A stretch of 48,893 bases of DNA from a virus (taxonomy: Duplodnaviria; Caudoviricetes), in the IMG/VR virus record IMGVR_UViG_3300043764_000023, positions 1-48,893 of that record; one strand, 5' to 3'. Made by a program: the position numbers and the translations under genes. Position 1 is the stretch's first letter. Every line of letters starts with the position of its first letter. This document shows positions 165-48,893 of the stretch, in pieces. The notes under the pieces were generated by a model. That model did no database searches, was not told the origin of the DNA, and worked only from the letters and a program-made list of their open reading frames with translations.

Positions 165-201
165 ATAAAATAAGTATTTTAAACAAAGGGGGAGCAGTAA
201 C

Positions 202-846
202 ATGAAAATGCTAGAAATATTTGCAGGAACTAGGTCAATGGCTGATACATTCGAGAAACACGGTTTTGAAGTATTTACAATCGAGCTTGATACAGTTCAC
301 CCACGAATTGATTTATATGAGGATATTCTAAACGTAACATCTGATATGATCTTTGAGAAGTTTGGAAGACCTGATGTGATTTGGGCTAGTCCAGTTTGCA
401 CATCTTACAGTATTGCTGCTATTAGTACACACAGAACTAAGGAAGAAAACGGCAACCTAGCTCCTAAAACAGAATACGCTGCTTACTCAGATAGAATGAC
501 TCAGCACACAATCAATCTAATCAAAGAACTAAACCCTACATACTACTTCATCGAAAACCCTAGAGGTGGTATGCGTAAAATGAACTTCATGAAAGACCTG
601 CCTAGATACACAGTTACGTATTGCCAGTACGGAGATACACGAATGAAGCCAACAGATATATGGACGAATCATCCAGATCCTCAGTTTAAACCAATGTGCA
701 AAAACGGTATGCCTTGCCACGAAGCAGCTCCAAGAGGAGCAAAAACAGGTACGCAAGGATTAAAAGGGAGCATTGATAGAAGTAAAATACCTCAGGAACT
801 TTGCGATCATATCGTAAACATTAGCCAACCAGTACTAGTTAAATAA
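202..846 (+). CDS. Small phage DNA (cytosine-5) methyltransferase-like protein
   Basis: Motif I LEIFAG, motif IV IWASPVC, motif VI FIENP; RBS GGGGGAG. Confidence 0.75.
   Translation: MKMLEIFAGTRSMADTFEKHGFEVFTIELDTVHPRIDLYEDILNVTSDMIFEKFGRPDVIWASPVCTSYSIAAISTHRTKEENGNLAPKTEYAAYSDRMTQHTINLIKELNPTYYFIENPRGGMRKMNFMKDLPRYTVTYCQYGDTRMKPTDIWTNHPDPQFKPMCKNGMPCHEAAPRGAKTGTQGLKGSIDRSKIPQELCDHIVNISQPVLVK
601..727 (+). repeat. 127-bp exact repeat of the window end (48767-48893)
   Basis: Identical from cctagataca to gaagcag; preceding base differs (g600 vs a48766). Confidence 0.9.
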
Positions 847-1227: not shown

Positions 1228-1699
1228 CACAGGATACCAACTATCAGACCTATTAGTAGAAACAAATAAACGACAATTTCACCTATTACACCCTAACGCA
1301 ATCATGCCAGTACGAAAGACAAATGGTTCAGCGGGTTACGATCTCCACGCAGTCGAAGAAATACGTATCTTACCAAACGAAACAAAAGCCATTCCGACGG
1401 GTATCGGAGTAACAATGAATGAGGGTGACGTTGGTTTCCTTGCTCTACGATCGTCAATCGGTTTAAATCGAGGACTTTGTTGTCCGATTGGGTTTGGAAT
1501 CATAGATGAAGACTTCACACCACCGAATACAATGTCAGTAATTGTCACGAATACGAAAAATATTCCAGTTACAATAAATGTAGGCGAACGTATTGCACAG
1601 TTTGTATTCTCATGTTACAATACTACACATAACGAAGATTTACCGAATACAGTAAGAACAGGTGGAATAGGAAGTACAAATAAACAAAATACTAAATAA
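1217..1699 (+). CDS. dut: Trimeric dUTPase
   Basis: GSAGYDL, RSSIG, GIIDEDF, ERIAQ, RTGGIGST motifs. Confidence 0.92.
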   Translation: MTNNTGYQLSDLLVETNKRQFHLLHPNAIMPVRKTNGSAGYDLHAVEEIRILPNETKAIPTGIGVTMNEGDVGFLALRSSIGLNRGLCCPIGFGIIDEDFTPPNTMSVIVTNTKNIPVTINVGERIAQFVFSCYNTTHNEDLPNTVRTGGIGSTNKQNTK

Positions 1700-1702
1700 C
1701 TG

Positions 1703-1731
1703 GAATACCTTCATAAAATTCAGCATAGAAT
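1703..1731 (+). promoter_or_regulatory. Putative sigma-E (mother-cell) type promoter
   Basis: GAATACC-14 nt-CATAGAAT immediately upstream of the AAGGAGG RBS of 1757. Confidence 0.55.
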
Positions 1732-1756
1732 GGAGGTATAAGGAGGAAATAAAACT

Positions 1757-2296
1757 ATGAAGTGCCTTGCATGTCAAAGAGAATTAAGTAAAAAAGAAAC
1801 ATTATACGATGAAAACCACGATCCATTTTGCTCAAATGCAGCAATTTGTAATGATGAACACCCGAATAGCGTAAAAAATATCTTAGCTCGCCAAGGAGCT
1901 GCAACACTTTACACTGAAAAAGAACTAGAAGTAAATGAATACGAAAACCTAAACTTACCTGAAGATGTAAAAGACCAAGTTCTTAAAATGGTCAAACGAC
2001 CGACAACAGTTCGAATTAGTGATGTATCCCTAGCTGTTCACCTAGTTCAGTTAAAAGATAATTACGGTCTATCAAGTATCTCTGAAGCCATTCGTTTCTG
2101 CGTACAAAAAGATTTCGAGTTTGGCGATGATCGCGAACGATTAATCAGGGAAAAGCACGAAGCAAAAGAGCTTCAAAAACAAATTGACGAATCACTAAAT
2201 CAAGAACACTCAGAACAAGAACAACCAAGAGATAAATTAGTAGCAGAACCAAAACAAGAGCAACAAGAAATTGATTTCAATTCATTAGAATTTTAA
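1757..2296 (+). CDS. Zn-binding + ribbon-helix-helix-like DNA-binding protein
   Basis: N-terminal CLAC...C...C..H; RPTTVRISD...LKDNYGLSSISEAIRFCV resembles RHH; acidic tail. Confidence 0.55.
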   Translation: MKCLACQRELSKKETLYDENHDPFCSNAAICNDEHPNSVKNILARQGAATLYTEKELEVNEYENLNLPEDVKDQVLKMVKRPTTVRISDVSLAVHLVQLKDNYGLSSISEAIRFCVQKDFEFGDDRERLIREKHEAKELQKQIDESLNQEHSEQEQPRDKLVAEPKQEQQEIDFNSLEF

Positions 2297-2308
2297 TGAG
2301 GTGATGTT

Positions 2309-3049
2309 ATGGAAGAAACCAAAAAAGCACCTAGTTTCACAATTAAATTAGATGATAAGCCACACCTACTCGCTTTACTAGGAGAAGATGCATCAAAGGC
2401 AAGAGAAGTCATCGGAACGTTCGTAAACTTAATAGAGCAAGCGGCAAAGTACGAATGGTATAAGCTGCCCGAATTTATCCATAGTTCGATCACGTTCCCT
2501 GACTTAATCAGTGGGATACTAGAAGGAATCTTAACAGTTCAGAAATACCCGTCAAACTCATATTTAACACTTGAGCAAGATGTTCACCCGCTGTCACTTT
2601 TAAGCGATACAGCAAAAGATGAATACACAAAGAAAGAGCTTGAGTACAACTGGCGAGATCACTTCACATTAAAAGACAGCCACGTTTCAAAAGAAACAAT
2701 TGCGAAGATTTACAGAGAACTTTCATACTTAGTCAGATGGTTCGATTTAGACAGTATCCGTAACGGGCTATTTGCGAACGATTACCCTGTCATTGATAAC
2801 GTCAAAGGAGTCGCAAAACTTCCATTTTTCCCTAGCTTACGTTACCAAAAGGAAGTAAAAGGAGAGCTTCACGTTGGTCAGTTCTTACATGAAGTGGGGC
2901 TTTTCGATTGTGGTGAGGTCGCACCTGATGTAGATATTTGCCTAGCGTGCCAGATTGGAGAGCTAGAGACCATCACAAATCACGAACACATAAAAGGCTG
3001 CCGAAGATGTAACAGCGGATTTATAGTAAAAGAGGGACTAGATTTTTAG
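2309..3049 (+). CDS. Hypothetical protein with C-terminal Zn ribbon
   Basis: CLACQ...CRRCN at the C-terminus; GAGGTG RBS. Confidence 0.7.
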   Translation: MEETKKAPSFTIKLDDKPHLLALLGEDASKAREVIGTFVNLIEQAAKYEWYKLPEFIHSSITFPDLISGILEGILTVQKYPSNSYLTLEQDVHPLSLLSDTAKDEYTKKELEYNWRDHFTLKDSHVSKETIAKIYRELSYLVRWFDLDSIRNGLFANDYPVIDNVKGVAKLPFFPSLRYQKEVKGELHVGQFLHEVGLFDCGEVAPDVDICLACQIGELETITNHEHIKGCRRCNSGFIVKEGLDF

Positions 3050-3054
3050 TCCCT
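3033..3054 (+). terminator. Hairpin at the end of the 1757-3049 unit
   Basis: AGGGACTA-gatttt-TAGTCCCT; no U-tract. Confidence 0.4.
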
Positions 3055-3091
3055 AGTTGCTGAATAGAAGGTAAATAAAGCGACAGAAAGG

Positions 3092-3277
3092 TTGAGAATT
3101 TTGAGTAATGTTATTAAAGAAGTTATACAAATTGCAAGGCGTGATTATAGTTGTGATGATTGCAAAAAGCCTATTTTAAAACGTTCTAAATATCATTATT
3201 TGTTTGGTTCAGCTTTCAAAGGAGAAAAACCATATAGCATTAGAATTTGTCAAAACTGCAAACCGATTGATGCGTAG
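3092..3277 (+). CDS. Small Zn-finger protein
   Basis: CDDC...CQNC; true start may be the TTG at 3101. Confidence 0.65.
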   Translation: MRILSNVIKEVIQIARRDYSCDDCKKPILKRSKYHYLFGSAFKGEKPYSIRICQNCKPIDA

Positions 3278-5243: not shown

Positions 5244-5257
5244 AATTTCATGTTATC

Positions 5258-5287
5258 TTGCATATTTCATGTGTTATATAGTATAAT
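5258..5287 (+). promoter_or_regulatory. Sigma-A-like promoter, 18-bp spacer
   Basis: TTGCAT-18-TATAAT. Confidence 0.7.
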
Positions 5288-5329
5288 ATAGGATATAACA
5301 CTTTTACTTGAAAGGAGATTTAATAAACT

Positions 5330-7274: not shown

Positions 7275-7293
7275 AAAATTTTAACGTGACATA

Positions 7294-7323
7294 TTGCATA
7301 TAACATACGTTATGTGGTAAACT
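7294..7323 (+). promoter_or_regulatory. Sigma-A-like promoter, 18-bp spacer
   Basis: TTGCAT-18-TAAACT; shares GACATATTGCATAT and ATGTGGTAAACTATTAGTA with 3320-3362. Confidence 0.7.
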
Positions 7324-7351
7324 ATTAGTAGAAAACAAAGGAGGTACTTAC

Positions 7352-9218: not shown

Positions 9219-9248
9219 TTGACCGATGTATAACATATGGTTTATGCT
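9219..9248 (+). promoter_or_regulatory. Sigma-A-like promoter, 18-bp spacer
   Basis: TTGACC-18-TATGCT. Confidence 0.6.
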
Positions 9249-9291
9249 ATATATCAGTTGGATAAACTTAACAATTAGGAGGATGGGAATT

Positions 9292-9801
9292 ATGTCATTT
9301 TTAACAACAGATTACACAGAAGTAAAAGAAGGCGGAAACGGTGGAGATTTTCAGCCACTACCGATTGGAGATTATGAGGTATTAGTATCAAAGGTTGAAA
9401 TGAAGAAAACGCAGAACAAAGTCGATATGATTAGTTTAGAGCTAACTGTTCGTGACGATGTGGCTCAGGAAGGCAAAAAACGTAAGTTCTTTGATAACTT
9501 ACCAATCATGCCACAACTAATGTGGAAAATTCAAACGATTTCAAAACACGCAGGTTTCCCAGTAGGTCAAGAGTTTGCTACACCTGCGGACTTTGCAAAA
9601 GCACTTCAGTACAAATGTTTCTCAATCCGTAACAAGCACGAAGAATACAACGGAAAAACAAGTGACCGAGTTGCTTACTACAACGCTTCCAAACATCCTT
9701 TAGCAAGTGGTGGTTCATCTAGTGACCCATTTGCAAACAATGACCCGTTCGCTCAAACAGGGAAGACAATAGATATTCAGGAATCTGATCTACCTTTCTG
9801 A
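9292..9801 (+). CDS. DUF669-type ssDNA-binding protein
   Basis: FQPLPIGDYEV, acidic DLPF tail; start revised to ATG 9292 after AGGAGG. Confidence 0.8.
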   Translation: MSFLTTDYTEVKEGGNGGDFQPLPIGDYEVLVSKVEMKKTQNKVDMISLELTVRDDVAQEGKKRKFFDNLPIMPQLMWKIQTISKHAGFPVGQEFATPADFAKALQYKCFSIRNKHEEYNGKTSDRVAYYNASKHPLASGGSSSDPFANNDPFAQTGKTIDIQESDLPF

Positions 9802-10322
9802 TGTGGAAACCAGTCGTAGGTTACGAAGGAATTTATGAGGTAAGTAAAGATGGTCAAGTTAGGACAGTTGAAGGAAAAACAACTTTCACTGAACGTCATG
9901 GAAAACGAAAATGGAAGCAACGAGTACTAAAACAGAAAGTATCTAAAGACAAGACCTGTAGAGTTAACTTATGGAAAGATGGAAAAGACAGAACATGGCT
10001 AGTTCATAGAGTTGTGGCACTAGCTTTCATACCATTGATTGAAGGTAAAGATTATATAAACCATAAAGATGGAAGTAGATTAAACAACCATATAGATAAT
10101 CTTGAATGGTGCGATCATACCGAAAACAATAACCATGCATTTACAACTGGTTTGATAACATCTAATCATCCGGTAACTTTAGTAAATACAGAAACTAAAG
10201 AAGAACTTAAATTTAGGAGTAAAGCTAAAGCAAGTAAATTTTTAGGTAAAACTGAAAATTTTGTATCCTCTTTACTGCTAAAGAATAAAACAACTTATCA
10301 AAGTTGGGAAATAAAGATATAA
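9801..10322 (+). CDS. NUMOD4-HNH homing endonuclease
   Basis: WKPVVGYEGIYEVSKDGQVR, VHRVVALAF, INHKDG..LNN..DNLEWC. Confidence 0.9.
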   Translation: MWKPVVGYEGIYEVSKDGQVRTVEGKTTFTERHGKRKWKQRVLKQKVSKDKTCRVNLWKDGKDRTWLVHRVVALAFIPLIEGKDYINHKDGSRLNNHIDNLEWCDHTENNNHAFTTGLITSNHPVTLVNTETKEELKFRSKAKASKFLGKTENFVSSLLLKNKTTYQSWEIKI

Positions 10323-10329
10323 AATCGCT

Positions 10330-10735
10330 GGTAACTGAGATTAATTTCTCAGTTATCTAAGGTACTCTAGGAACGTTTTCGACTGGTATCGGGTAATCGT
10401 TGGTTCGATATGCCGACCGAAAAAACTACTGTAACTAGGATTTTCGTCTAGTATTAGAGTCCTTTAGATAGCTGAGAAGTGAAGAATCTCGGTTACTGAA
10501 CGAGCCTACCTTAAAGGGGTTTTAACGACCTCCAATTGTTCTCCCCATAAGGTGGGTGCGTTGAGTAACCGAAGTAAGCTACTTGGTTATTGAATAAGGT
10601 ACTCCAAAAACGGGCATGAACTCGATAGGGAATAAACTCACCCAGCTTCTCGTAAGAAGCACCCACGATGTTTCAATAAGTCCCTAGTATGACTGGACAC
10701 TCAGCAAATGGAGTACTTTATTGAGTAACTGAGTA
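10330..10735 (+). ncRNA. Structured non-coding repeat array (palindromic repeats enclosing three long hairpin cargos)
   Basis: Four RRTARCYGA arms and three complementary arms; three ~25-bp stems whose non-WC pairs are mostly G-U on the + strand. Confidence 0.7.
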
Positions 10736-10754
10736 AAACAAGGGGAGGATCACC

Positions 10755-13583
10755 ATGTTCTTTGAACAATTTTTTAGTAATCGGGGTGAAGATACAACTC
10801 CGAACGAACTAGGGGAAGTAAACGTACAGTGTCCTTTCCCTCATAGTGACGGACTTCCGTCAGATAAGCGTAACGCTTGGTATAACGATGAAAAACGAGT
10901 ATTCCATTGCTTTGCTTGTGCTGCGGCTGAACGAAGCAAAGGAATGTCTGAGATCACGTTTATCGCAAAGCTATACAATACAACCTACGACCATGCGATT
11001 CAGCTTAGTAAACTTCACAGTTCAGCTCACCTAGATGGAGGACTAGAGAGTTCGACTGAAGGATTACTTAAAGTGCCCGAGTACATCGAGTTTTTAGCAA
11101 ATAGGGGAATTACAATCGACACAATTAAAAAGTATCAGCTAGGGTACAACGGGGAAGGAATCACTTACCCGATCATCTTAAATGGTATCCATATCGAAAA
11201 TAGAACTTACTATGTGAACCGAACTGGCGACGAACCAAAGATTAAAGGTGAAAAAGGGGGAAAAGCTCTTTTATTCCCTTACGATCACTGGGTAAACGAC
11301 AACAGAACGACTCTACTATGTGCTGGCGAAAACGACACGCTCTTAGCTAGACAAAACGGGTTCAACGCTGTTACGTCGACTTTAGGTGAAGGGAGTATTC
11401 CAAAGCTAATCCTCAATAAATTTAAGGATCGTGAAGTAGTCATTTGTTACGACTGTGACGATGCAGGAAAACGCTCATCTAAACGCATGGCTTACTACCT
11501 AAGAGAAGCAGGAGCTATTGTTAGGGTCATGAATCTAGGTCTTAGTGGTGAAAAAGATGATAAAGACATAACAGACTTTTTTATAACGCAAAATAAATCA
11601 ATTTCTGCGTTTACGGAGCTATTTAATACCGCTGGTATCTTTACTGAAGACGAATTCGTTGAACAAAAGAACAAAGAGTACCCTCTCATTAACTTATGGG
11701 AAGTAACTGACCCAAGCTATCACAACAAGTACATATCATCACGAGTTAGTATGATGGGGCAAAATGAAACAACATATGAACTAACAACAGAACTTGAGTG
11801 GAAATGCACAGATAAGGTAGAAGGCTGTAAGGTTTGCGAAACTTGTTATATGGCGAAGAAAAGTGGATCATGGTCACTTTCTTATGGCAACCTGCGGGAT
11901 ATGCTGAAACTAATTGAGGTAAAAGACGACGAAAAAGAGAAGAACATGCGTAAAGCCATCGGACTTCCACCACAGTGTCCTAGACCAAACATTAAACCAC
12001 TTTCCATCAAAACGGTCACAAAAGCATTTTTAACACCCGATGTTGAAACAGAAAGTGAATTAAGTGGCTATCGTGAGATCACAGCAACTAGCTACATCAT
12101 TCAGCATAAACTTGAAGCTGGGAATAAATACCGAGTTTTCTTTAAGCGTTACGCTCACCCAAAAGACCAAACGACAGTACTCGTTGTCGATAAAGTTGAG
12201 GAATCCGATAACGCAATTAACACGTTTAAAGTAACTCCTGAGTTTAAAGAACGCTTGAAAGAGTGGCAAGGTCATCCAAAAGAAGTGATGGAAAAACGGT
12301 ATCGTGTACTAGCTCAGGGGTTAGTTGGAAAATATATTCCAAGAGATATTTACTTTGCAGCAGAGCTTGTTTACCATAGCGTTCTTGATTTAAAGTTCAT
12401 GGGAAAAATGATTAAAGGTCATCCTGAAATTCTAATTGTCGGTGCTTCTCGTACTGGTAAATCAGAAATAGCGAAGAAGCTAAACAATTTCTATCAGCTT
12501 GGGAATATGACGGATGCTAAAACAATGACCATTTCAGGAGCTTTAGGCGGAGCGGACCAAACACTTGGAGGTTTCCGCATTAAATGGGGGATTATCCCAC
12601 GAAATCATAGAGGGATGTTGATACTAGATGAAGTCAGTGGATTACCAAAAGAAGTCATTAAAGCACTCACACCTGTTCGAAGCGAACGAATTGCAAAAGT
12701 CGAGAAAATTATCAGCGGAACAGCTCCCGCAAAAACCCGTATGTTATGGATTGGGAATCCAGCAACCGATAAAAATGGAAACAGTAAAAGTGTTAGGGAT
12801 TACGCACATGGAATCCAAGTCTGTACAGAACTCATCGGGGCACATGAGGACATCAACCGCTTCGATGCAATTGTACTCGTCGCAGACCCGCCTGAGTACA
12901 TATCTCCGCTCAATGAAGACGGGAGTGTACCTGAGGAAGAACAGTTACCTGAGGAACTTAGAGAACTTATCAGATGGTGCTGGTCAAGAACAGAAGGACA
13001 AGTAAAGTTCGAGGATAAACTTGAAAGATATATCGAACATAAAAACAACGAAATGCACAAATTATTTAAGTCTGAAGTAAAGATATTAGACGTTGAAGGG
13101 GTACAAAAGATTGCGAAGATGGCAACGAGTGTTGCTGCTTGTTGTTTTTCGGCAACGGAAAGCGGAGAAGAAATTTATGTGAAGAAAGAGCATGTTGACT
13201 GGGTAGTTGGTTTCTTATATCACCTCTATGATAACGATTACTTTCGATTAAGAGAATACTCATACAAACAACGTCAAGCATCTGAAACAGACCCATCAAA
13301 TAATGTATATGTTGCAGGTCTTATGAGAAATTACCCAATGTTAATCGGAACACTTCAAGAAAGTATCGAAGATATGAGTAACTATGATCTTCAGATTATT
13401 TCAGGAGTACCGAAAGACGATTTTTCGAGTGTGATTAGCGGTCTTGTTCGAAGTAACAATGCAAAAATAACGAAAAAAGGCATAACCCCTACACCGAGGT
13501 TACGCCAAGCGATTAAAGAGAATCGCAAGAATTATCAAAATCAGACGCTCACCCCATTACATGAACAGGGAGGGTTTTACTAA
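10755..13583 (+). CDS. Primase (Zn finger + TOPRIM) fused to MCM-type AAA+ helicase
   Basis: CPFPH..CFAC, GENDTL, YDCDDAG; Cys-rich middle domain; GASRTGKS, WGIIPRNHRGMLILDE, NRFD. Confidence 0.85.
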   Translation: MFFEQFFSNRGEDTTPNELGEVNVQCPFPHSDGLPSDKRNAWYNDEKRVFHCFACAAAERSKGMSEITFIAKLYNTTYDHAIQLSKLHSSAHLDGGLESSTEGLLKVPEYIEFLANRGITIDTIKKYQLGYNGEGITYPIILNGIHIENRTYYVNRTGDEPKIKGEKGGKALLFPYDHWVNDNRTTLLCAGENDTLLARQNGFNAVTSTLGEGSIPKLILNKFKDREVVICYDCDDAGKRSSKRMAYYLREAGAIVRVMNLGLSGEKDDKDITDFFITQNKSISAFTELFNTAGIFTEDEFVEQKNKEYPLINLWEVTDPSYHNKYISSRVSMMGQNETTYELTTELEWKCTDKVEGCKVCETCYMAKKSGSWSLSYGNLRDMLKLIEVKDDEKEKNMRKAIGLPPQCPRPNIKPLSIKTVTKAFLTPDVETESELSGYREITATSYIIQHKLEAGNKYRVFFKRYAHPKDQTTVLVVDKVEESDNAINTFKVTPEFKERLKEWQGHPKEVMEKRYRVLAQGLVGKYIPRDIYFAAELVYHSVLDLKFMGKMIKGHPEILIVGASRTGKSEIAKKLNNFYQLGNMTDAKTMTISGALGGADQTLGGFRIKWGIIPRNHRGMLILDEVSGLPKEVIKALTPVRSERIAKVEKIISGTAPAKTRMLWIGNPATDKNGNSKSVRDYAHGIQVCTELIGAHEDINRFDAIVLVADPPEYISPLNEDGSVPEEEQLPEELRELIRWCWSRTEGQVKFEDKLERYIEHKNNEMHKLFKSEVKILDVEGVQKIAKMATSVAACCFSATESGEEIYVKKEHVDWVVGFLYHLYDNDYFRLREYSYKQRQASETDPSNNVYVAGLMRNYPMLIGTLQESIEDMSNYDLQIISGVPKDDFSSVISGLVRSNNAKITKKGITPTPRLRQAIKENRKNYQNQTLTPLHEQGGFY

Positions 13584-17086: not shown

Positions 17087-17123
17087 GAAGCCTACTGCGG
17101 AAACAGTAGACTTCTTTTTTTTT
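17087..17123. terminator. Terminator between convergent units
   Basis: GAAGCCTACTG-cggaaa-CAGTAGACTTC followed by a T run on the + strand. Confidence 0.75.
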
Positions 17124-17679
17124 ATGTGTACACTTCTTTCGGAACGTTCATTCGTTCAATGGTAAATCCGCTTGGAATCGTTAATTTATCATACCGATTA
17201 TCTGATATAAGTAGGAAAGTCTTTGCATCGTGGAGCTGTGCTTTGAAGGTTTTCACAAAGGAGTCAATTTTCTTTTGCATTTTAGCGTGGCTAATCGGAG
17301 TTAACTGAATTTCAACGCAGTAAGGGACGTTGTTTCCGTCCCTCATGTATACGTCAGGTCTGTATTCCCCTATCACTGGTTCAGGTACAAAGTGGTCAGG
17401 ACACCCGTAGGTAATATAAAAATCAACAATCTTCAGGTAATGCGTGATTTTAACCGTTCTTGGGTGGATAATACTTGGGTTTGGCATATAAATATAGGGT
17501 TTATCACGCTCACGAATGATTTGATTAATCGCTCCCGTAATACTCATTCGCTTCAGTACTCTATTTACAACGTTAATTGGATTACTATTTTCACTGCAAG
17601 TCAGGTAAGCTAACTGATTTCTTGAGCAAACCTTGAACTCTTTCAGATAATGCTGAATCACTCTGTCCCTTTTCATCAT
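17122..17679 (-). CDS. Replication-relaxation family protein (wHTH + PD-(D/E)xK)
   Basis: N-terminal wHTH, H.L.IVDFY, RPDVY...YCVEIQ; typical partner of phage FtsK. Confidence 0.75.
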   Translation of the reverse strand: MMKRDRVIQHYLKEFKVCSRNQLAYLTCSENSNPINVVNRVLKRMSITGAINQIIRERDKPYIYMPNPSIIHPRTVKITHYLKIVDFYITYGCPDHFVPEPVIGEYRPDVYMRDGNNVPYCVEIQLTPISHAKMQKKIDSFVKTFKAQLHDAKTFLLISDNRYDKLTIPSGFTIERMNVPKEVYT

Positions 17680-18796
17680 CTAGCACAAGTCCCTTCGTTT
17701 TGTCTTCAAATGGAGCTAATAACTGCTCTGCAACACTATCGTCCATAAATGGTATCTGTACCATAAAAGTATCTCCGTCAAGTAATAATCCACGACCTGC
17801 GATTCCTCCAAGTTTCTCAGCTCCTTCACGATCTAAGATAATCTTACTATTTGCAGTATCACCAGTTGTAAACGCTAATCTTGTTAAAATATTTGCTTTC
17901 AGTCTTGGCTTCATGACTGTACTGGCATCAGGTCTTTGACTTGCAAGAATCAAGTGAACATTTACATATCCCGCTGTTTCTGCGATTTCTTCGAGCATTT
18001 TCATCAGTTCTTTGTTTTCAGCAAGCCTTGCGACTTCATCAATACAGACAAAAATCGGAGAAAATTCGTGGTAGTGGTTCAGAGCGTGGTTTTTGACACC
18101 TTTCGCATCTGCGACTTTCCGTAAGTCAGGGTGATGTAATAAGAGTTTCGAGCGACGTTTGTATTCAGCTATCACACTTTCAAGCATTTCCATTGCTTGT
18201 TCTTCGTCCATTGAGAGTGTAACGTTAGGTAAGCGAAAGAACGGGTAAAAATCTTTAATTTTCGCACTAGAGATATGGAGCTTCATACTTCCTTTTGTTT
18301 GAACGTAGAGGGAAGTTAGTGTATAAAGAAGAAACTTCGTTTTCCCCATACGTGTTGCTCCCCCGTTAAGTAGATGACAACTAGCCCCGTCTTCAAAATC
18401 TAAGGTCATTTCCCCGTATGCGGTTGGTAAATAGATTTTAAGCGTTCCATCATGGAGCATATCTTCTTTAAAGATAACGTGCGATAAGTCGTTGATTCCA
18501 AACAAGATCGTCGTCCATCGACCTTTCTTTTCTTCAATTTTAGCATCTAACGCTCCGAGGTCATCAACGAGCTTAGGTAGTATCTTCAGTAAATCATCAT
18601 TTGTTTTCTTCGAGCTAAGACCAATCGTTACAGATAGATATGTCTTAGTTTTTATAATCGTCCCGACCTGACAACCAAAGAACCCTTTTTCCTGAAGCAC
18701 ATTGTAGATAATCTCCGTTTCACCTGATAACTTTGTTTCATCGTGTCGAATCTTTCGGTACAGACCGTAAGCTAAGGCAGCAGCTGTAAGATACAT
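17591..18796 (-). CDS. FtsK/SpoIIIE-family ATPase
   Basis: HLLNGGATRMGKT, VCIDE, LASQRPD, GRGLL; N-terminal anchor. Confidence 0.9.
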   Translation of the reverse strand: MYLTAAALAYGLYRKIRHDETKLSGETEIIYNVLQEKGFFGCQVGTIIKTKTYLSVTIGLSSKKTNDDLLKILPKLVDDLGALDAKIEEKKGRWTTILFGINDLSHVIFKEDMLHDGTLKIYLPTAYGEMTLDFEDGASCHLLNGGATRMGKTKFLLYTLTSLYVQTKGSMKLHISSAKIKDFYPFFRLPNVTLSMDEEQAMEMLESVIAEYKRRSKLLLHHPDLRKVADAKGVKNHALNHYHEFSPIFVCIDEVARLAENKELMKMLEEIAETAGYVNVHLILASQRPDASTVMKPRLKANILTRLAFTTGDTANSKIILDREGAEKLGGIAGRGLLLDGDTFMVQIPFMDDSVAEQLLAPFEDKTKGLVLDDEKGQSDSALSERVQGLLKKSVSLPDLQ

Positions 18797-19011
18797 TCGC
18801 CCACCACCCTTATCGAATGAAGAAAGATATTATCTATTCCACCTAAAGCTGTACCGAGGAAACTAACCCCGAGCATGGTATGACACGTTACTTCAAGTAA
18901 ACCAATCAATGTAAGACCCCAAAAAGTCCACCCGATTATTTTCCCTTTTGAAATCGGTATTTTCGCTGTTTCGCCTACTGTAATCGGCTTTCCGTTCACT
19001 TTCACAACCAT
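18772..19011 (-). CDS. Small membrane protein of the FtsK operon
   Basis: AAAGGAGG RBS; hydrophobic segment. Confidence 0.7.
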   Translation of the reverse strand: MVVKVNGKPITVGETAKIPISKGKIIGWTFWGLTLIGLLEVTCHTMLGVSFLGTALGGIDNIFLHSIRVVGECILQLLP

Positions 19012-41332: not shown

Positions 41333-42835
41333 TTAATAGTATGCAAGATAATCCAACTCTTTTTCGTTATCATCGTCGTATTCGATTGTATCATATATTT
41401 TGTACTCACTGTAGTGTTTAGGTGGCTCATACGCTTCATTTTCGAGCATTGACGGGTCATCAGGCAACCTGGCTATAAGGTATCTAGTTGCATCTAAAAT
41501 ATGATCGTTTGCCTTGATTGGTCTTTCGTCTTGGTTCTCGTTTTCGTTATCCATATCTAGCTCAGGATAAACATATCCAAGAGCTTCTTTAACAAAGTTA
41601 ATACACGTTTTATAGACTTTCAATTTCTTCTGTTCGATGTATGCGTTCACTTTCGCAAGACCGTATTCCATACTATTGTTACCTAGCTGGAAGTAAAGTC
41701 CGTATTCTTGGAAATGTGACTGTACGGATTTCCCTTCGATTGGGTTTGTCCTTGCTTTTGTAGCTGGGTCGATGACCATAAATCGTATTTTACCGATTGG
41801 AATTTCCTCAAGTAGTGCCTTGATTGCTTTTGCGTGTTCAGGAAGTGTCTTTTCAGGTACATAGTATTCGTTATAGATAACTACCTCACCCGATTTCGGA
41901 TTAATCGCCCCAAAAGCGACCGCTGTTGGGTTACGAATACCCCAGTCTGCTCCAATTACCCGTTCCCAGTCCTTAGGTATACCGAAACGATCTGTGTCCT
42001 TTGTTACTTCATATGGGTCAATGAATGTTTCAGCAATAGTCGGGTAGACCATACCACTATTATATTCGAAACTACCCATGAAGAACTTCTGCACGTACCA
42101 GTCTGCTTTACCTTTTGTATTCATCTCAATGAAATTAGGTGGTAAAAACGTATTTAAAGCGGTTTTCCATACAAAAGTACGAATAAACTGATTGTAACGG
42201 TCATGTTGTGGGTGATTTGGGTCTTTACGGGCTTCATTATCTACGAACTCGTCCTTAATCCATGTGTTTGCAGGGTTAGAGCAAACGATAATTGCTTTAT
42301 TTTTAACGAAAACGTCCCTCATACGGGATTGGAGCTGTGTATAAATACTCTTTTTGATCCCTGAAACCTCTTCAAGGTGAACCAAGCCAATCGTCATCGA
42401 ACGAATACGCTGCTCGTCCTCAGTCGGAACGCAGTAAATTGTAAACCCGTTGACGAGCCTAATCTCTCCATCACTCTTATTATAGTATTCTATTAAAGGA
42501 GGTGGGCATATCTCATCAAACCACAGTTTTAGAGTTGTTTTCTTTAATTGTCCCATTGTCTGAGCTGCGAAAATACCTGATCCCCTGTCGTTTTCAAGTG
42601 CCCTCATTAGGAACTCTTGGAGGGTTGCCCTCGATTTTCCACTTCCGTAACCCCCAAAACAAGCTATGATGTCAATTCCGCCCCCAGTCGATACCTGATG
42701 CATCTCTTCTTGATAAGGCATAGGAATATACGTTAACTGCATCGCATTACACTTATTACAAACTTTGTAGCTAGGATGGTTATCAGGTGGCTCGACCATG
42801 TGTCCTACATGGCAATTTGAACAGTGATGGCTCAT
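41333..42835 (-). CDS. terL: Terminase large subunit
   Basis: GGYGSGKS, HLEE, CSNP, GADWG..NPT, NDHILDATRY; N-terminal CxxC/CxxC. Confidence 0.92.
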   Translation of the reverse strand: MSHHCSNCHVGHMVEPPDNHPSYKVCNKCNAMQLTYIPMPYQEEMHQVSTGGGIDIIACFGGYGSGKSRATLQEFLMRALENDRGSGIFAAQTMGQLKKTTLKLWFDEICPPPLIEYYNKSDGEIRLVNGFTIYCVPTEDEQRIRSMTIGLVHLEEVSGIKKSIYTQLQSRMRDVFVKNKAIIVCSNPANTWIKDEFVDNEARKDPNHPQHDRYNQFIRTFVWKTALNTFLPPNFIEMNTKGKADWYVQKFFMGSFEYNSGMVYPTIAETFIDPYEVTKDTDRFGIPKDWERVIGADWGIRNPTAVAFGAINPKSGEVVIYNEYYVPEKTLPEHAKAIKALLEEIPIGKIRFMVIDPATKARTNPIEGKSVQSHFQEYGLYFQLGNNSMEYGLAKVNAYIEQKKLKVYKTCINFVKEALGYVYPELDMDNENENQDERPIKANDHILDATRYLIARLPDDPSMLENEAYEPPKHYSEYKIYDTIEYDDDNEKELDYLAYY

Positions 42836-42848
42836 GAGTCAATCCCTC

Positions 42849-43526
42849 CTAGATACTACCCTTACTATTAGGGTTTAACTTCTGTGTTAGCTTTTGCTGT
42901 TCTTTCGCTTGCTGTAAGTCTTGTTCGTGCTGTGCTTGCGTATGGACTATTTGCTGACCATGATTTATTTCTTTTTGCTGAACTGCTTGAATGTGTGTTG
43001 CTTGATTTTGCTCCATGTTTTGCACTTGTTGTGCGAGTTTATTTTGATGCTCCTGCTGTCTAAACTGCATCGTTAAATCATGAGATTGCTGGTTATGAAC
43101 TAAGCTCTGCTGATGAGCCTGAGCCTTCATTTGTAAGTCCGCTGCTTTCATCTGCATGTCGGCTTGAGGGTTTGGCTGACCTAGCAAGGTATAGATTTGG
43201 GTAATTGCCTGTGCCCCTTGCAGAACAACGTGTGCCTTTGTCTGAGCATCTAAGTCCTGACGGTTAACTAGCCCTAAGTAGTAGTTCGCTGTTTGGAGAG
43301 CTACTTCGTTCAAAACGTCCGACGGGTCTAGTTGTGGTTCGGATTGTTCTTGCTGAGGTGTTTCCATTCCTTCGTTCGGGTCGTTCGGTTCGCCCTGTTC
43401 AGGTTGCTCCATTTGGTTAGGGTCTTGCCCTTGCATTTGTTCGTTCGGGTCTTCTTGCTGGCTTGGGTCTTGTTGACCTTGTTGTGCTGCTTGGACCTGT
43501 GCTAATTGATTTGGGTCGATACTCAT
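42849..43526 (-). CDS. Gln-rich hypothetical protein
   Basis: 225 aa, Q/P/E-rich N-terminus, Q/H-rich coiled C-terminus. Confidence 0.7.
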   Translation of the reverse strand: MSIDPNQLAQVQAAQQGQQDPSQQEDPNEQMQGQDPNQMEQPEQGEPNDPNEGMETPQQEQSEPQLDPSDVLNEVALQTANYYLGLVNRQDLDAQTKAHVVLQGAQAITQIYTLLGQPNPQADMQMKAADLQMKAQAHQQSLVHNQQSHDLTMQFRQQEHQNKLAQQVQNMEQNQATHIQAVQQKEINHGQQIVHTQAQHEQDLQQAKEQQKLTQKLNPNSKGSI

Positions 43527-43711
43527 ATCATATACCCCTCCTTGATTAATTTAGCTGAAAGTTCATGGTACTCCTGAAGCCATCCGTAGGATATTTCCTT
43601 TCCTGCCTTTTCAAAACGATCCATTGCTTCTATGATTTCTTGTAATCGTTGCTTTTCTCTAATATATCTAGGAACTAACCCAAGTGGTGGTTTTTCGTAT
43701 GCTTCGCTCAT
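43523..43711 (-). CDS. Hypothetical phage protein
   Basis: KPPLGLVP...W..EY.EL pattern. Confidence 0.7.
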   Translation of the reverse strand: MSEAYEKPPLGLVPRYIREKQRLQEIIEAMDRFEKAGKEISYGWLQEYHELSAKLIKEGYMI

Positions 43712-43833
43712 TTATCTCTCTCCTTCTTTTTCAATTTATCGTCAATCCATATGACTGTTTTGGCGAATAGGATTAAACCTCCTACGAAACCTACGATATA
43801 TGTTGTAATTAAACCTACGGTATAGATGAACAT
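43708..43833 (-). CDS. Small single-TM protein (41 aa)
   Basis: AAGGAGG RBS; MFIYTVGLITTYIVGFVGGLILF... Confidence 0.6.
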   Translation of the reverse strand: MFIYTVGLITTYIVGFVGGLILFAKTVIWIDDKLKKKERDK

Positions 43834-43905
43834 TTGATTTCCTCCTTAGCTATTTGAGTTGTTTTATTCTCAGTATAGCTAATGTCCTAATAATTAGAAC
43901 TATGG

Positions 43906-44316
43906 TCACTCATCCTTCGATAAATTTTGTTCACTTTGTGGTCTTGGTATTTGATGTAAGATGATCTTCGTTTTGTTATCCTGAGCTTTCTCAGCTGTTA
44001 GTTCTTGGATTTGTCTTGCAGCTTGTGCGTTTCCTTCTAGTGCCATCGTTAGGAGAGAACGGAAGGATTGCCTTTGTGCGATCTGACCTAAGAACTGCAT
44101 CTGTGACTTGATGTATTGGTTCGTTGGTTCTAGCTCTAGGAACTCTTTCCATGTGTCGGGTGTTGCTAGGTTTGTTTTTCTATGGATTAGTTCCGGTTGG
44201 TCAAATAGGAAATCGGTTTGTTGTTCGAATGTATTTGCTAGTTTTTGGAATACAGCTTGTTTATCCCTTGTGTATTCTTGGAATGGCTTGTAGTTTTGTA
44301 GTAATTCTATAAGCAT
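43906..44316 (-). CDS. Probable terminase small subunit
   Basis: First late gene next to the putative packaging region; helical, GNAQAARQI; GGAGG RBS gives start 44316. Confidence 0.5.
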   Translation of the reverse strand: MLIELLQNYKPFQEYTRDKQAVFQKLANTFEQQTDFLFDQPELIHRKTNLATPDTWKEFLELEPTNQYIKSQMQFLGQIAQRQSFRSLLTMALEGNAQAARQIQELTAEKAQDNKTKIILHQIPRPQSEQNLSKDE

Positions 44317-44350
44317 GAATACACCTCCCTTGTGTATGTCTGTATACATT

Positions 44351-44379
44351 AGTTTAGCATGGATGTATTCTATTTGCTA
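44351..44379 (-). promoter_or_regulatory. Promoter for late/packaging genes
   Basis: TAGCAA-17-TAAACT with TG extension on the - strand. Confidence 0.5.
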
Positions 44380-44935: not shown

Positions 44936-44964
44936 TTGACAAACGCATACAATAGTAGTACAAT
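44936..44964 (+). promoter_or_regulatory. Early sigma-A promoter 2
   Basis: TTGACA-17-TACAAT followed by AAGAGTATA. Confidence 0.8.
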
Positions 44965-45076
44965 AAGAGTATACAAAGAACACCGAATACTAAGGATAAC
45001 GCTAGTACGCATGAAGCAGGAAAATGTATCCACTGGTTAGTAGGTGTTCACAACTAAACAATTGGAGGTTTTACAA

Positions 45077-45244
45077 ATGAAGACATTAACAAACTGGAAT
45101 GAGTTTATTAACACATGTGCGAATCAAGGAACATTCACAACTGATGTGAGCATTGAGTTACTAAAAGAAATGGAAGACCGTCAAGTGTCATTCGGTATTC
45201 AGTCAATATCAGCCGAACGTATTACGGTTAAGGTGTATGAGTAA
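45077..45244 (+). CDS. Early 55-aa protein, paralog 2
   Basis: GGAGG RBS; MKTLTNWNEF...ITVKVYE; 29/55 identical to 44741. Confidence 0.8.
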   Translation: MKTLTNWNEFINTCANQGTFTTDVSIELLKEMEDRQVSFGIQSISAERITVKVYE

Positions 45245-45360: not shown

Positions 45361-45390
45361 CAAATACAAAAACAATTGGAGGAATTAACA

Positions 45391-45675
45391 ATGACGAAGA
45401 AACCACAAGCAAACAACATCACTGTAAATAATGAGGAAATCACGTACTACCGAATTGACAACGATATCAACGGTAATCCACGCTATGTAGTACACTTTCT
45501 TAGCTTAAATGTAAAATTAGCTGACTATGGAAAAATCAAAGGTCTTACGAAGTATCGTGCTAAATGGTTCGGTGGTGGATATGTATTTCAATCACACAAC
45601 TTAGAATCAGATTTAAACTATTACTTAAAACTAGTTGATAACTATTACAACGAAAAAGGAGCGAAAATAAAATGA
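45391..45675 (+). CDS. Conserved early phage protein
   Basis: NDINGNPRYVVHF...GGGYVFQS; GGAGG RBS. Confidence 0.75.
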   Translation: MTKKPQANNITVNNEEITYYRIDNDINGNPRYVVHFLSLNVKLADYGKIKGLTKYRAKWFGGGYVFQSHNLESDLNYYLKLVDNYYNEKGAKIK

Positions 45676-47297: not shown

Positions 47298-47326
47298 TTG
47301 ACACTTAACACACCACATGGTATATT
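47298..47326 (+). promoter_or_regulatory. Sigma-A promoter
   Basis: TTGACA-17-TATATT with TG extension. Confidence 0.75.
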
Positions 47327-47980: not shown

Positions 47981-48014
47981 TCAAAAACAATAGAACAATT
48001 GGAGGAACAAAGAA

Positions 48015-48257
48015 ATGAACGAAATCATCAAAACCCTACAAGGCACGATCTCAAGACTACAAGAAGACAATAAGCACCTAGAGGATCGGTTCTTTCAAGA
48101 AACTGAAAAGATACACGTTTTAGAAAAAGTTTTGAAGGAATACAAAGCAAGTCGTAACGAAACAGCTGTGACCGTTCAGCATAATGACAGAGTCATTAGA
48201 CAGCTAGAAACCTATTTAAAACAAATGGAGCTAGTCGCAGCATGTTCACAGTTATAA
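48015..48257 (+). CDS. Coiled-coil hypothetical protein
   Basis: 80 aa, GGAGG RBS. Confidence 0.7.
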   Translation: MNEIIKTLQGTISRLQEDNKHLEDRFFQETEKIHVLEKVLKEYKASRNETAVTVQHNDRVIRQLETYLKQMELVAACSQL

Positions 48258-48343: not shown

Positions 48344-48367
48344 GAGGGCAAAGGGGAGAGTAACAGT

Positions 48368-48893
48368 ATGAAAATGCTTGAAATATTTGCAGGAACTAGG
48401 TCAATGGCTGATACATTCGAAAGAAACGGATTCGAAGTATTCACAATCGAACTAGATACAGTTCACCCACGAATTGATTTATATGAGGACATTTTAAACG
48501 TAACAGCGGATATGATCCTTGAAAAGTTCGGAAGACCTGACGTAATTTGGGCGAGTCCAGTTTGCACATCTTACAGTATTGCAGCAATTAGTACGCACAG
48601 AACAAGGGAAGTTGATGGTAACCTAGCTCCTAAGACGGAATACGCTGCATACTCAGACAGAATGACTCAGCACACAATTAACTTAATTAAAGAACTAAAC
48701 CCTACATACTACTTCATCGAAAACCCTAGAGGTGGTATGCGTAAAATGAACTTCATGCAGGAGCTACCTAGATACACAGTTACGTATTGCCAGTACGGAG
48801 ATACACGAATGAAGCCAACAGATATATGGACGAATCATCCAGATCCTCAGTTTAAACCAATGTGCAAAAACGGTATGCCTTGCCACGAAGCAG
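48368..48893 (+). CDS. Second allele of the 202-846 methyltransferase (runs off the window end)
   Basis: Same protein with mostly synonymous changes; different upstream context. Confidence 0.85.
   Translation, partial: MKMLEIFAGTRSMADTFERNGFEVFTIELDTVHPRIDLYEDILNVTADMILEKFGRPDVIWASPVCTSYSIAAISTHRTREVDGNLAPKTEYAAYSDRMTQHTINLIKELNPTYYFIENPRGGMRKMNFMQELPRYTVTYCQYGDTRMKPTDIWTNHPDPQFKPMCKNGMPCHEA

Follow-up and report, generated by a model that had tools for sequence, protein, structure and literature searches.

Genetic organization of the locus

The window, that is, the whole stretch of DNA analysed, is a complete 48.9-kb virus record of a tailed phage, and from its sigma factor, FtsK/SpoIIIE, YozD-like and Cse60-like genes we infer that the host is a spore-forming member of the Bacillota. 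The closest cultured phages have a primase just 31% identical to that of the window. The array under study sits in a 430-nt gap. On one side of it are the gene for a single-stranded DNA-binding protein (ssb, DUF669; 9292..9801, plus strand; PHROG 378, E 4e-28; PF05037) and a passenger gene identified by profile matches as a NUMOD4-HNH homing endonuclease (9801..10322, plus strand); on the other are the Shine-Dalgarno and the gene of a primase-helicase with zinc finger, Toprim and MCM-like parts (10741..13583, plus strand, likewise by profile matches). A consensus scan placed a promoter-like site 5' of ssb (9219..9252, plus strand, 9/12), consisting of TTGAC, an 18-nt spacer and TATGCTATA. This motif recurs in front of ssb in three relatives (L001, L003 and L004), and the site is likely to be the start of the transcript that carries the array.

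Several other features of the window were noted. Promoter-like sites with CATAT-rich spacers are found at 9219-9252, about 5255-5290 and about 7285-7325, standing 5' of ssb, of the gene ahead of the helicase and of a nuclease gene; they differ from the early promoters with 17-nt spacers and are possibly a middle promoter class. Over 545 bp, the two ends of the window (186-727 and about 48350-48893) are 92% identical; they hold two non-identical starts of one methyltransferase gene, which may reflect either a terminal redundancy with differences or a mixed assembly. On the minus strand at 17122-19011, an FtsK/SpoIIIE gene, a replication-relaxation-like gene and a small gene form a trio inverted inside the replication region, an arrangement also seen in several relatives. 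Neither an integrase nor a repressor was recognised among the 62 ORFs of the window with PHROGs.

Structure and fold of the array

The first-pass annotation had described the gap as a non-coding array of seven arms (R1 to R4 and L1 to L3), in which each R can pair with the next L as a short hairpin, or each L with the next R as a long stem around an insert. All seven arms were read where it had placed them, and its three stems of about 25 bp are the three longest of the 57 inverted repeats in 9800-11300 (10489-10518/10543-10572, 10341-10369/10455-10483 and 10580-10606/10709-10735). The arms are inverted repeats of 11-13 nt, and the inserts, of 109, 66 and 132 nt, are self-folding. On the plus strand, the R1-L1 hairpin (10330..10357) is an alternative to the outer part of stem 1, and its end coincides with a predicted cut. 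In the predicted fold, unit 1 (10346..10478, plus strand) has a 25-bp closing stem and a 76-nt branched cargo, with a predicted product of about 10358-10468. Unit 2 (10489..10572, plus strand), hereafter unit A, is a long hairpin kept in five phages, with a predicted product of about 10498-10565, and comparison together with the fold makes it a candidate trans-acting sRNA. Unit 3 (10580..10735, plus strand) is predicted to have a 26-bp closing stem, a 102-nt branched cargo and a product of about 10592-10725. The three inserts had been called unrelated; this is not entirely so, for the inner stems of units 1 and 3 begin with an 18-nt repeat that is 83% identical.

The proposal of an RNA selected for structure was borne out by the fold and by the pattern of mismatches. 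The stretch 10300-10780 folds at -158.3 kcal/mol on the plus strand (z -6.68; 0/100 shuffles as good), against a z of -4.60 on the minus strand. Non-Watson-Crick positions had been described as mostly G-U, and across the outermost 22 positions of the three stems we indeed count 8 G.U, 0 A.C and 4 other mismatches; a G.G mismatch lies at the same position in stems 2 and 3, where stem 1 has U-A. As had been supposed, all three short R-L hairpins can form when taken alone (-15.4, -10.5 and -9.3). The further idea that the two folds act as a switch found little backing in the window: the long-stem state is better by 20 kcal/mol (-149 against -129), and the pairs that test for the short hairpins have a probability of 0.0.

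Distribution of the layout among relatives

Relatives were collected by primase searches of viral, metagenome and genome contigs. Requiring a primase at least 38% identical and the presence of upstream DNA, and counting identical arrays once, we obtained a set of 24 distinct loci including the window; L008 and L050, which come without upstream DNA, and five weak partial primase matches stayed outside it. In 16 of the 24 loci a small hairpin precedes a long stem that encloses a cargo, and the layout stops immediately ahead of the primase Shine-Dalgarno; the other eight have a terminator-like hairpin alone at this place. The layout was not found at this place in the six distant loci that were read (L026, L029, L031 and L060-L062). 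Side observations on these contigs were as follows. In two cultured phages, Youna2 (L062, 1895-2380) and BSP7 (L061, 2031-2343), ssb is followed by a terminator and then by a long, imperfect, A/T-rich inverted repeat. L047, a member of the phage family, comes from a genome bin labelled Prevotella and is probably a mis-binned phage contig. The terminase large subunit matches in two or three pieces in G006 (41960-44356) and G012 (1406-3179), which suggests introns or inteins.

The 16 loci hold 21 units in total, four of them having two or three units each. The cargo ranges from 4 to 102 nt and is mostly unrelated between loci, two of which (L009 and L055) have almost none. L001 and L003 have close primases and different second units; cargo turnover between relatives, a point raised in the first-pass annotation, was thus found. 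The closing pairs number 19-37 in all 21 units (25-27 in the window). The outer 22 positions of 20 of the 21 units comprise 367 Watson-Crick pairs, 40 G.U, 5 A.C and 28 other mismatches, the unit of L039 being left aside because of a bulge. G.U is favoured over A.C by 40:5, for which the binomial p of 4e-8 is too strong since the units are related, and the direction is clear. The array therefore appears to work as an RNA of the plus strand.

In a quick tree, the five loci with unit A form one clade (99) and the terminator-only loci lie inside the family. With a midpoint root, a plain terminator as the ancestral state is not favoured, because the terminator-only loci are nested. The R1-L1 hairpin is present in all 16 loci with the layout and differs in sequence between them. 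Its energy comes within 0.5-3.8 kcal/mol of that of the first stem in L001, L003, L004 and L024, and it beats the first stem in 2 of the 16 loci.

Searches beyond the family returned little. The array had no nucleotide match in 50,697 phage records, the unit of L024 gave nothing beyond matches of E 4, and units 3 and 1 found nothing meaningful in plasmids. Four pattern scans of viral contigs were made. The first gave 12 stretches, of which five lie in known relatives and six of the other seven were read and are unrelated; the second gave eight, two of them known and six without the stem; the third gave none; and the fourth gave 119, among which unit A was seen solely in three known loci in the 80 examined. 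One chance match of the pattern scan, in the unrelated viral contig L020 (2300-2800), is an almost perfect inverted repeat, each arm measuring about 240 bp; short tandem repeats occur at the ends, and the whole lies 5' of a ParB-like gene.

Conservation of unit A

Unit A occurs in the window and in L001, L003, L004 and L024 as one copy per genome, and a model of it found no further copy elsewhere in the 754 kb searched. Its arms and the loop hexamer CCUCCA are invariant in the five sequences, and the stem between them is rewritten and still paired. Covariation, which the first-pass annotation had left to be examined, is evident in this small set of five sequences from four lineages: 10 of the 25 pairs change on both sides, and 96.7% of the cells are paired, a value reached by 0/500 shuffles and to be compared with 32-44% in slid controls. 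At stem positions 13-24, 56 of 60 cells are paired, with only 2-6 of the 12 letters common between lineages. Covariation and the G.U bias both bear out a structured plus-strand RNA.

The neighbouring HNH gene was considered as the partner of the RNA. It is missing at this place in most relatives, L046 having one that is 52% identical to that of the window. It was ruled out as a partner because it is absent from the four other loci with unit A (L001, L003, L004 and L024).

Predicted release of the units by RNase III

RNase III needs at least about 20 bp of near-continuous duplex in its substrate, and this is present in 21/21 units. Public records show that the G.G mismatch occurs in the same setting (TT[G]A / T[G]A) in the 16S and 23S pre-rRNA stalks of Priestia megaterium, and also in the 16S stalks of Bacillus amyloliquefaciens, Paenibacillus polymyxa and Bacillus sp. 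N5-665; the records L226 and L227 have no upstream stalk strand and gave no stalk. This G.G setting is found in 7 of the 10 units of the close clade, the likeness extending over only about 4 bp around the mismatch. Unit 1 has its U-A pair at this position; in the 11 other loci the arms differ, and most have Y.Y or C.A there. A passage of PMC4838370 places the RNase III cut of Bacillus subtilis 67 nt after 16S. On the spacer of B. amyloliquefaciens this falls just 5' of the mismatch G, and the mapped position is to be read as plus or minus 2 nt because it is another species than B. subtilis. The R1-L1 hairpin ends at the cut position predicted in this way in 3 of the 5 unit-A loci and one base earlier in the other 2; in most of the other 11 loci it ends a few bases past the mismatch. 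Release of separate RNAs from the array is likely, since its stems look like the stalks that RNase III cuts in Bacillus pre-rRNA, and on the folding model we propose that R1-L1 is a protective 3' hairpin of the upstream mRNA, formed after the cut.

Mini-III was considered as another cutting enzyme. Its consensus, given in PMC4357697, is (G/A/U)(A/U)CC^(U/A). Judged by eye, a single unit (the second one of L004) matches it among the 9 that share this arm type, and 0/3 units in the window do, so that Mini-III is unlikely as the enzyme.

Complementarity of unit A to early ribosome-binding sites

The putative seed of unit A (10527..10542, plus strand) consists of the exposed CCUCCA loop (10529-10534; unpaired probability 0.99) and its flank. 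When both strands of the whole window were searched for perfect complements of unit A of at least 11 nt, exactly three were found, and all are ribosome-binding sites of early genes. The first predicted target (45057..45069, plus strand, 13 nt) is the RBS of a 55-aa early gene at 45077, with a sigma-A-like promoter (11/12) at 44936-44964. The second (45371..45382, plus strand, 12 nt) is the RBS of a TreK-like gene at 45391 (PF24229, E 7e-28); in the relative G016 this site and the seed differ from those of the window in a matching way, as described below. The third (47992..48005, plus strand, 14 nt) is the RBS of an 80-aa early gene at 48015; here the sigma-A-like promoter (11/12, 47298-47326) lies 5' of the preceding gene. 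All three are small genes within 44.7-48.3 kb, and the complements cover the Shine-Dalgarno. We take this region to be early because of the sigma-A-like promoters and the TreK-like gene at 45391.

With opening costs included, the duplex energies of the 14-, 13- and 12-nt sites are -17.3, -14.2 and -12.6; in 10 other genomes unit A reached at best -7.8 to -11.3. When the hexamer was held fixed and the flanks were redrawn, three 12-nt matches had p 0.0003-0.003 and one 14-nt match had p 0.0007-0.02. CCUCCA pairs with UGGAGG and not with the usual AGGAGG. Among GGAGG-type sites in the four unit-A genomes, UGGAGG accounts for 16/35 early against 7/94 other sites; in seven genomes without unit A the figures are 5/49 and 16/139. 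The p of 3e-4 for this enrichment overstates independence, because the four unit-A genomes form one clade. For these counts, the early blocks were drawn by hand first and then set by marker genes, G011 and G013 being dropped for a missing marker, and gene starts came from a simple in-house caller.

The predicted complementarity was then tried on a fresh sequence, G016, which carries the L001 form of unit A and has most of the early region present. After CCUCCA, this form reads CGA where the window has AUU, and the G016 orthologue of TreK (66% identical) has TCG before TGGAGG where the window has AAT, so that seed and TreK site changed together at three positions. The TreK orthologue is the best match of the G016 unit A among 27 genes (10 nt, the next being 8). 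For the unit A and TreK sites of the window and G016, duplexes of own pairs have energies of -18.5 and -20.4, and swapped pairs -10.7 and -12.9. The 10-mer of G016 occurs in 1 of the 686 start regions of 11 genomes, namely at an early gene of G002, a genome whose loop is that of G016. Two lineages and a single orthologous gene form the basis of this seed-target co-variation.

In the other genomes with unit A the picture is mixed. G002 and G016 have just one early gene each with a 10-nt match, a length to be read against the 10-11 nt that non-cognate pairs reach too, and the early sites of G002 are not significantly better ranked overall (p 0.10). The matching variant is absent from a distant TreK paralogue in G002 (32%), and both variants are absent from three TreK relatives in other viral contigs. 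G001 and G003, whose records are 91% and 88% complete and miss part of the early region, gave no own match above 8 nt. Separately, in G004, which is without unit A, the early genes (45594-50154) mostly have GGGAGG sites, several with a repeated leader; no cargo matching GGGAGG sites was found at its primase locus.

These matches suggest that unit A is a candidate trans-acting base-pairing sRNA for early RBSs. The first-pass annotation had treated the cargos as three unknowns and leaned towards a role against host defence; unit A departs from this, as the RBSs that it matches belong to early genes of its own phage.

Units 1 and 3 and other cargos

Units 1 and 3 gave no family, no database match and no outstanding target in their own genome, nor did nine other cargos that were tested against their own genomes show an outstanding target; the targets of units 1 and 3 are probably not the start sites of the phage itself. 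In L004, the second cargo pairs over 12 nt with one start site (-11.7), which is within the non-cognate range, and a match of -25 for the second cargo of L001 was discounted, being its own opposite strand. C-rich stretches are present in 12 of the 21 cargos. Mimicry of, or antisense pairing to, host rRNA or tRNA was ruled out, as the matches of the cargos to P. megaterium rRNA and tRNA are of 10-11 nt, about the chance level.

Some single cargos have features of their own. The second cargo of L001 (3833-3980) has different arms and two C-rich stretches, one of which is an 11-nt complement of the RBS of its own ssb. The cargo of L040 (4380-4470) contains a hairpin like a canonical tRNA T-arm and shares a 10-nt word with the cargo of L046, where the word is unpaired. 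On the minus strand opposite unit 3 (10600-10656), there is a weak likeness to domain 5 of a group II intron (E 3e-5).

Proposed mechanism and alternatives

We consider it probable that the array is a processed small-RNA cluster in the replication operon, one RNA of which, unit A, shuts off early translation. According to this proposal, the array would be transcribed together with ssb from the conserved promoter-like site, and each unit would fold into a stem of 22-29 bp. Host RNase III would cleave the two strands next to the 1x1 mismatch, some 10 bp above the stem base, and thereby free three end-paired RNAs of about 111, 68 and 134 nt. After cleavage, R1 and L1 would refold as a hairpin at the 3' end thus created on the ssb mRNA, and the primase mRNA would begin at a newly made 5' end some 29 nt upstream of the start codon. 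The RNA of about 68 nt from unit A would pair via the CCUCCA loop and its flank with UGGAGG-type Shine-Dalgarno sites on early genes and block their translation once the replication operon is on; units 1 and 3 would be additional RNAs carried by stems of this type. Should the phage be maintained as an extrachromosomal element, the unit A RNA could also silence the early genes in that state. A wider reading, which we put forward tentatively and with somewhat more doubt than belief, is that of a modular platform resembling a microRNA cluster: RNAs would be loaded, duplicated and swapped in a fixed RNase III stem with a protective 3' hairpin, one cargo would read a private UGGAGG-plus-flank variant on the phage's own early genes as an early-to-middle switch, and the others would be a fast-changing arsenal against the host.

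The stems might instead serve only as processing signals in cis. RNase III would then uncouple the abundant ssb mRNA from the primase mRNA, the cargos would be loop filler, and the match to early sites would be left over from an early leader that was once duplicated in inverted orientation. Cargos of 4 to 102 nt that are unrelated between most loci, and almost missing from L009 and L055, would be expected of filler, and the 8/24 loci with just a terminator-like hairpin and the retention of R1-L1 in 16/16 loci agree with a role in cis. For such a role one stem would do, yet 4/16 loci have two or three; moreover, filler accounts neither for the invariant CCUCCA in the loop of a rewritten stem nor for a seed and an orthologous target that changed together. 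We regard this account as unlikely.

Alternatively, the RNAs may be released and act mainly on the host, unit A blocking host mRNAs with UGGAGG sites and units 1 and 3 being decoys or sponges for host defence proteins or RNAs. The fast turnover of cargos between phages with close primases, as in the second units of L001 and L003, speaks for this, as do branched cargos that have no target in their own genome and the C-rich stretches in 12/21 cargos; part of the literature on Bacillus (PMC8216469) describes host C-rich sRNAs that work by such pairing. However, the matches of 12-14 nt and the co-variation are with phage genes, and those to P. megaterium rRNA and tRNA are about chance, so that as a main function this is improbable. 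For units 1 and 3, action on the host may go alongside the preferred reading of a processed cluster with unit A directed at early genes.

It seems very unlikely that the array stays uncut and works as a conformational switch or attenuator, with R-L hairpins and long stems controlling primase read-through or translation. The near balance of first hairpin and first stem in L001, L003, L004 and L024, the two loci in which the hairpin wins, a second group of loci with a hairpin and then a short U run, and a last arm that ends a few bases before the Shine-Dalgarno in 16/16 loci would all suit a switch. Against it, the long-stem state wins by 20 kcal/mol in the window, in neither state are the arms paired with the Shine-Dalgarno, the unit-A clade has no U run after R1-L1, and the invariant loop with its match in trans would be left unexplained. 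That the array is a DNA element, such as a replication origin, a cruciform or a mobile repeat beside the primase gene, is hardly credible: it does adjoin ssb and the primase gene, and the distant Youna2 and BSP7 have their long A/T-rich inverted repeat after ssb, but G.U exceeds A.C by 40:5, there is no GC skew turn here, paired arms occur at this locus only, and no transposase or integrase is among the 62 ORFs.

How early phage genes are shut off has been worked out in few cases, all of them involving proteins such as T4 RegB. If the proposed role of unit A is true, an RNA that reads a Shine-Dalgarno variant would be a new way to turn these genes off, and the two phages whose seeds and targets differ reciprocally at one gene would amount to a natural swap experiment. 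The cassette also suggests how a phage infecting Gram-positive bacteria could obtain several stable sRNAs from a single operon with no additional promoters or terminators. Beyond the present array, at least 16 more uncharacterised cargo RNAs are indicated, and the stem might be reused for small-RNA expression in Bacillus.

Comparison with known systems

The first-pass annotation knew of no family that matches the array and had set it apart from CRISPR and tRNA; both statements agree with our comparisons. With Rfam 15, there were 0 hits at or above the gathering threshold in the window and 0 in 13 related loci; there were sub-threshold scores alone, miRNA models being far below their cut-offs. 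A CRISPR array has direct repeats of 23-50 nt, regular unique spacers, and cas genes or a host array. Here the arms are inverted and of 11-13 nt, the inserts are self-folding, and no Cas family was found among the scanned ORFs; a 353-aa nuclease is a PD-(D/E)XK enzyme of the replication module and not Cas. ARAGORN found 0 tRNAs in the window, and unit 1 has just an 11-nt T-arm-like word. In six genomes, paired arms occur nowhere but at this locus; with one unit A per unit-A genome and no dispersed copies, MITE and REP elements were rejected.

Other classes were rejected as well. A retron ncRNA is not indicated, with no reverse transcriptase among 62 ORFs by PHROGs and 48 by Pfam. Integron attC core sites read GTTRRRY, and the arms read GTTACTG, GTTATTG and GTTATCT, with no integrase. 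TIGR arrays consist of tandem box C/D repeats with 9-nt spacers and go with a Nop-domain protein; such spacing is absent, and no Nop domain was found among the scanned ORFs. The minus-strand group II intron match scores 31.2 bits against a cut-off of 61, does not fold into a domain-5 hairpin, and has no notable word in common with a real intron locus. Hammerhead and K-turn were ruled out by eye, the core motifs being absent.

Several known systems share single traits with the array. The phages SP82 and T7 have intergenic stems in early mRNA that are cut by host RNase III, SP82 being named in PMC4838370. Such stems serve as mRNA processing sites with short loops and are not known to carry separate trans-acting RNAs. 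In stem design there is a likeness to the stalks of Bacillus pre-rRNA and pre-scRNA, which are long stems enclosing an RNA to be released (PMC4838370, PMC3386247); in the pre-rRNA stalks that were read, a G.G mismatch stands beside the cut in the local setting seen in 7 of the 10 close-clade units. The array differs from these stalks in that strand polarity relative to the loop is inverted, the cargo is variable (4-102 nt), the likeness covers about 4 bp, and a competing upstream hairpin is kept. In eukaryotic pri-miRNA clusters, one transcript has several hairpins, each cropped by an RNase III enzyme, and a seed pairs with several mRNAs; to these the array is an analogy only, with no second cut and no Argonaute.

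As regards function, the text of PMC3014915 on T4 RegB describes early phage translation being shut off via the Shine-Dalgarno of early mRNAs, as is proposed here. RegB, however, is a protein that cuts GGAG, whereas the agent proposed for the array is an RNA pairing with UGGAGG and its flank, and no RNase was found among the window ORFs scanned. In RoxS, FsrA, CsfG and RsaE of the Bacillota (PMC8216469; see also PMC10433868), an exposed C-rich loop pairs with G-rich RBSs; these are host-encoded stand-alone transcripts, whereas unit A is one hairpin in an operon and fits genes of its own phage. DicF, c4 of P1/P7, PreS of lambda and VpdS of VP882 appear in the main text of PMC12197685 as single RNAs of Proteobacterial phages. 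The main text of this 2025 review of phage sRNAs (which also tabulates 38 sRNAs in a supplement) does not contain the word 'Bacillus', and its passages on these RNAs describe no multi-unit precursor. A literature search made largely on listings of openly accessible articles found no description of such a cassette. The array is a member of none of the RegB, RoxS/FsrA, pre-rRNA/pre-scRNA and pri-miRNA systems. The cassette is real and conserved and seems undescribed; for one of its three units a specific function is proposed, that of a base-pairing sRNA, a known kind of RNA, in an architecture that may turn out to be new.
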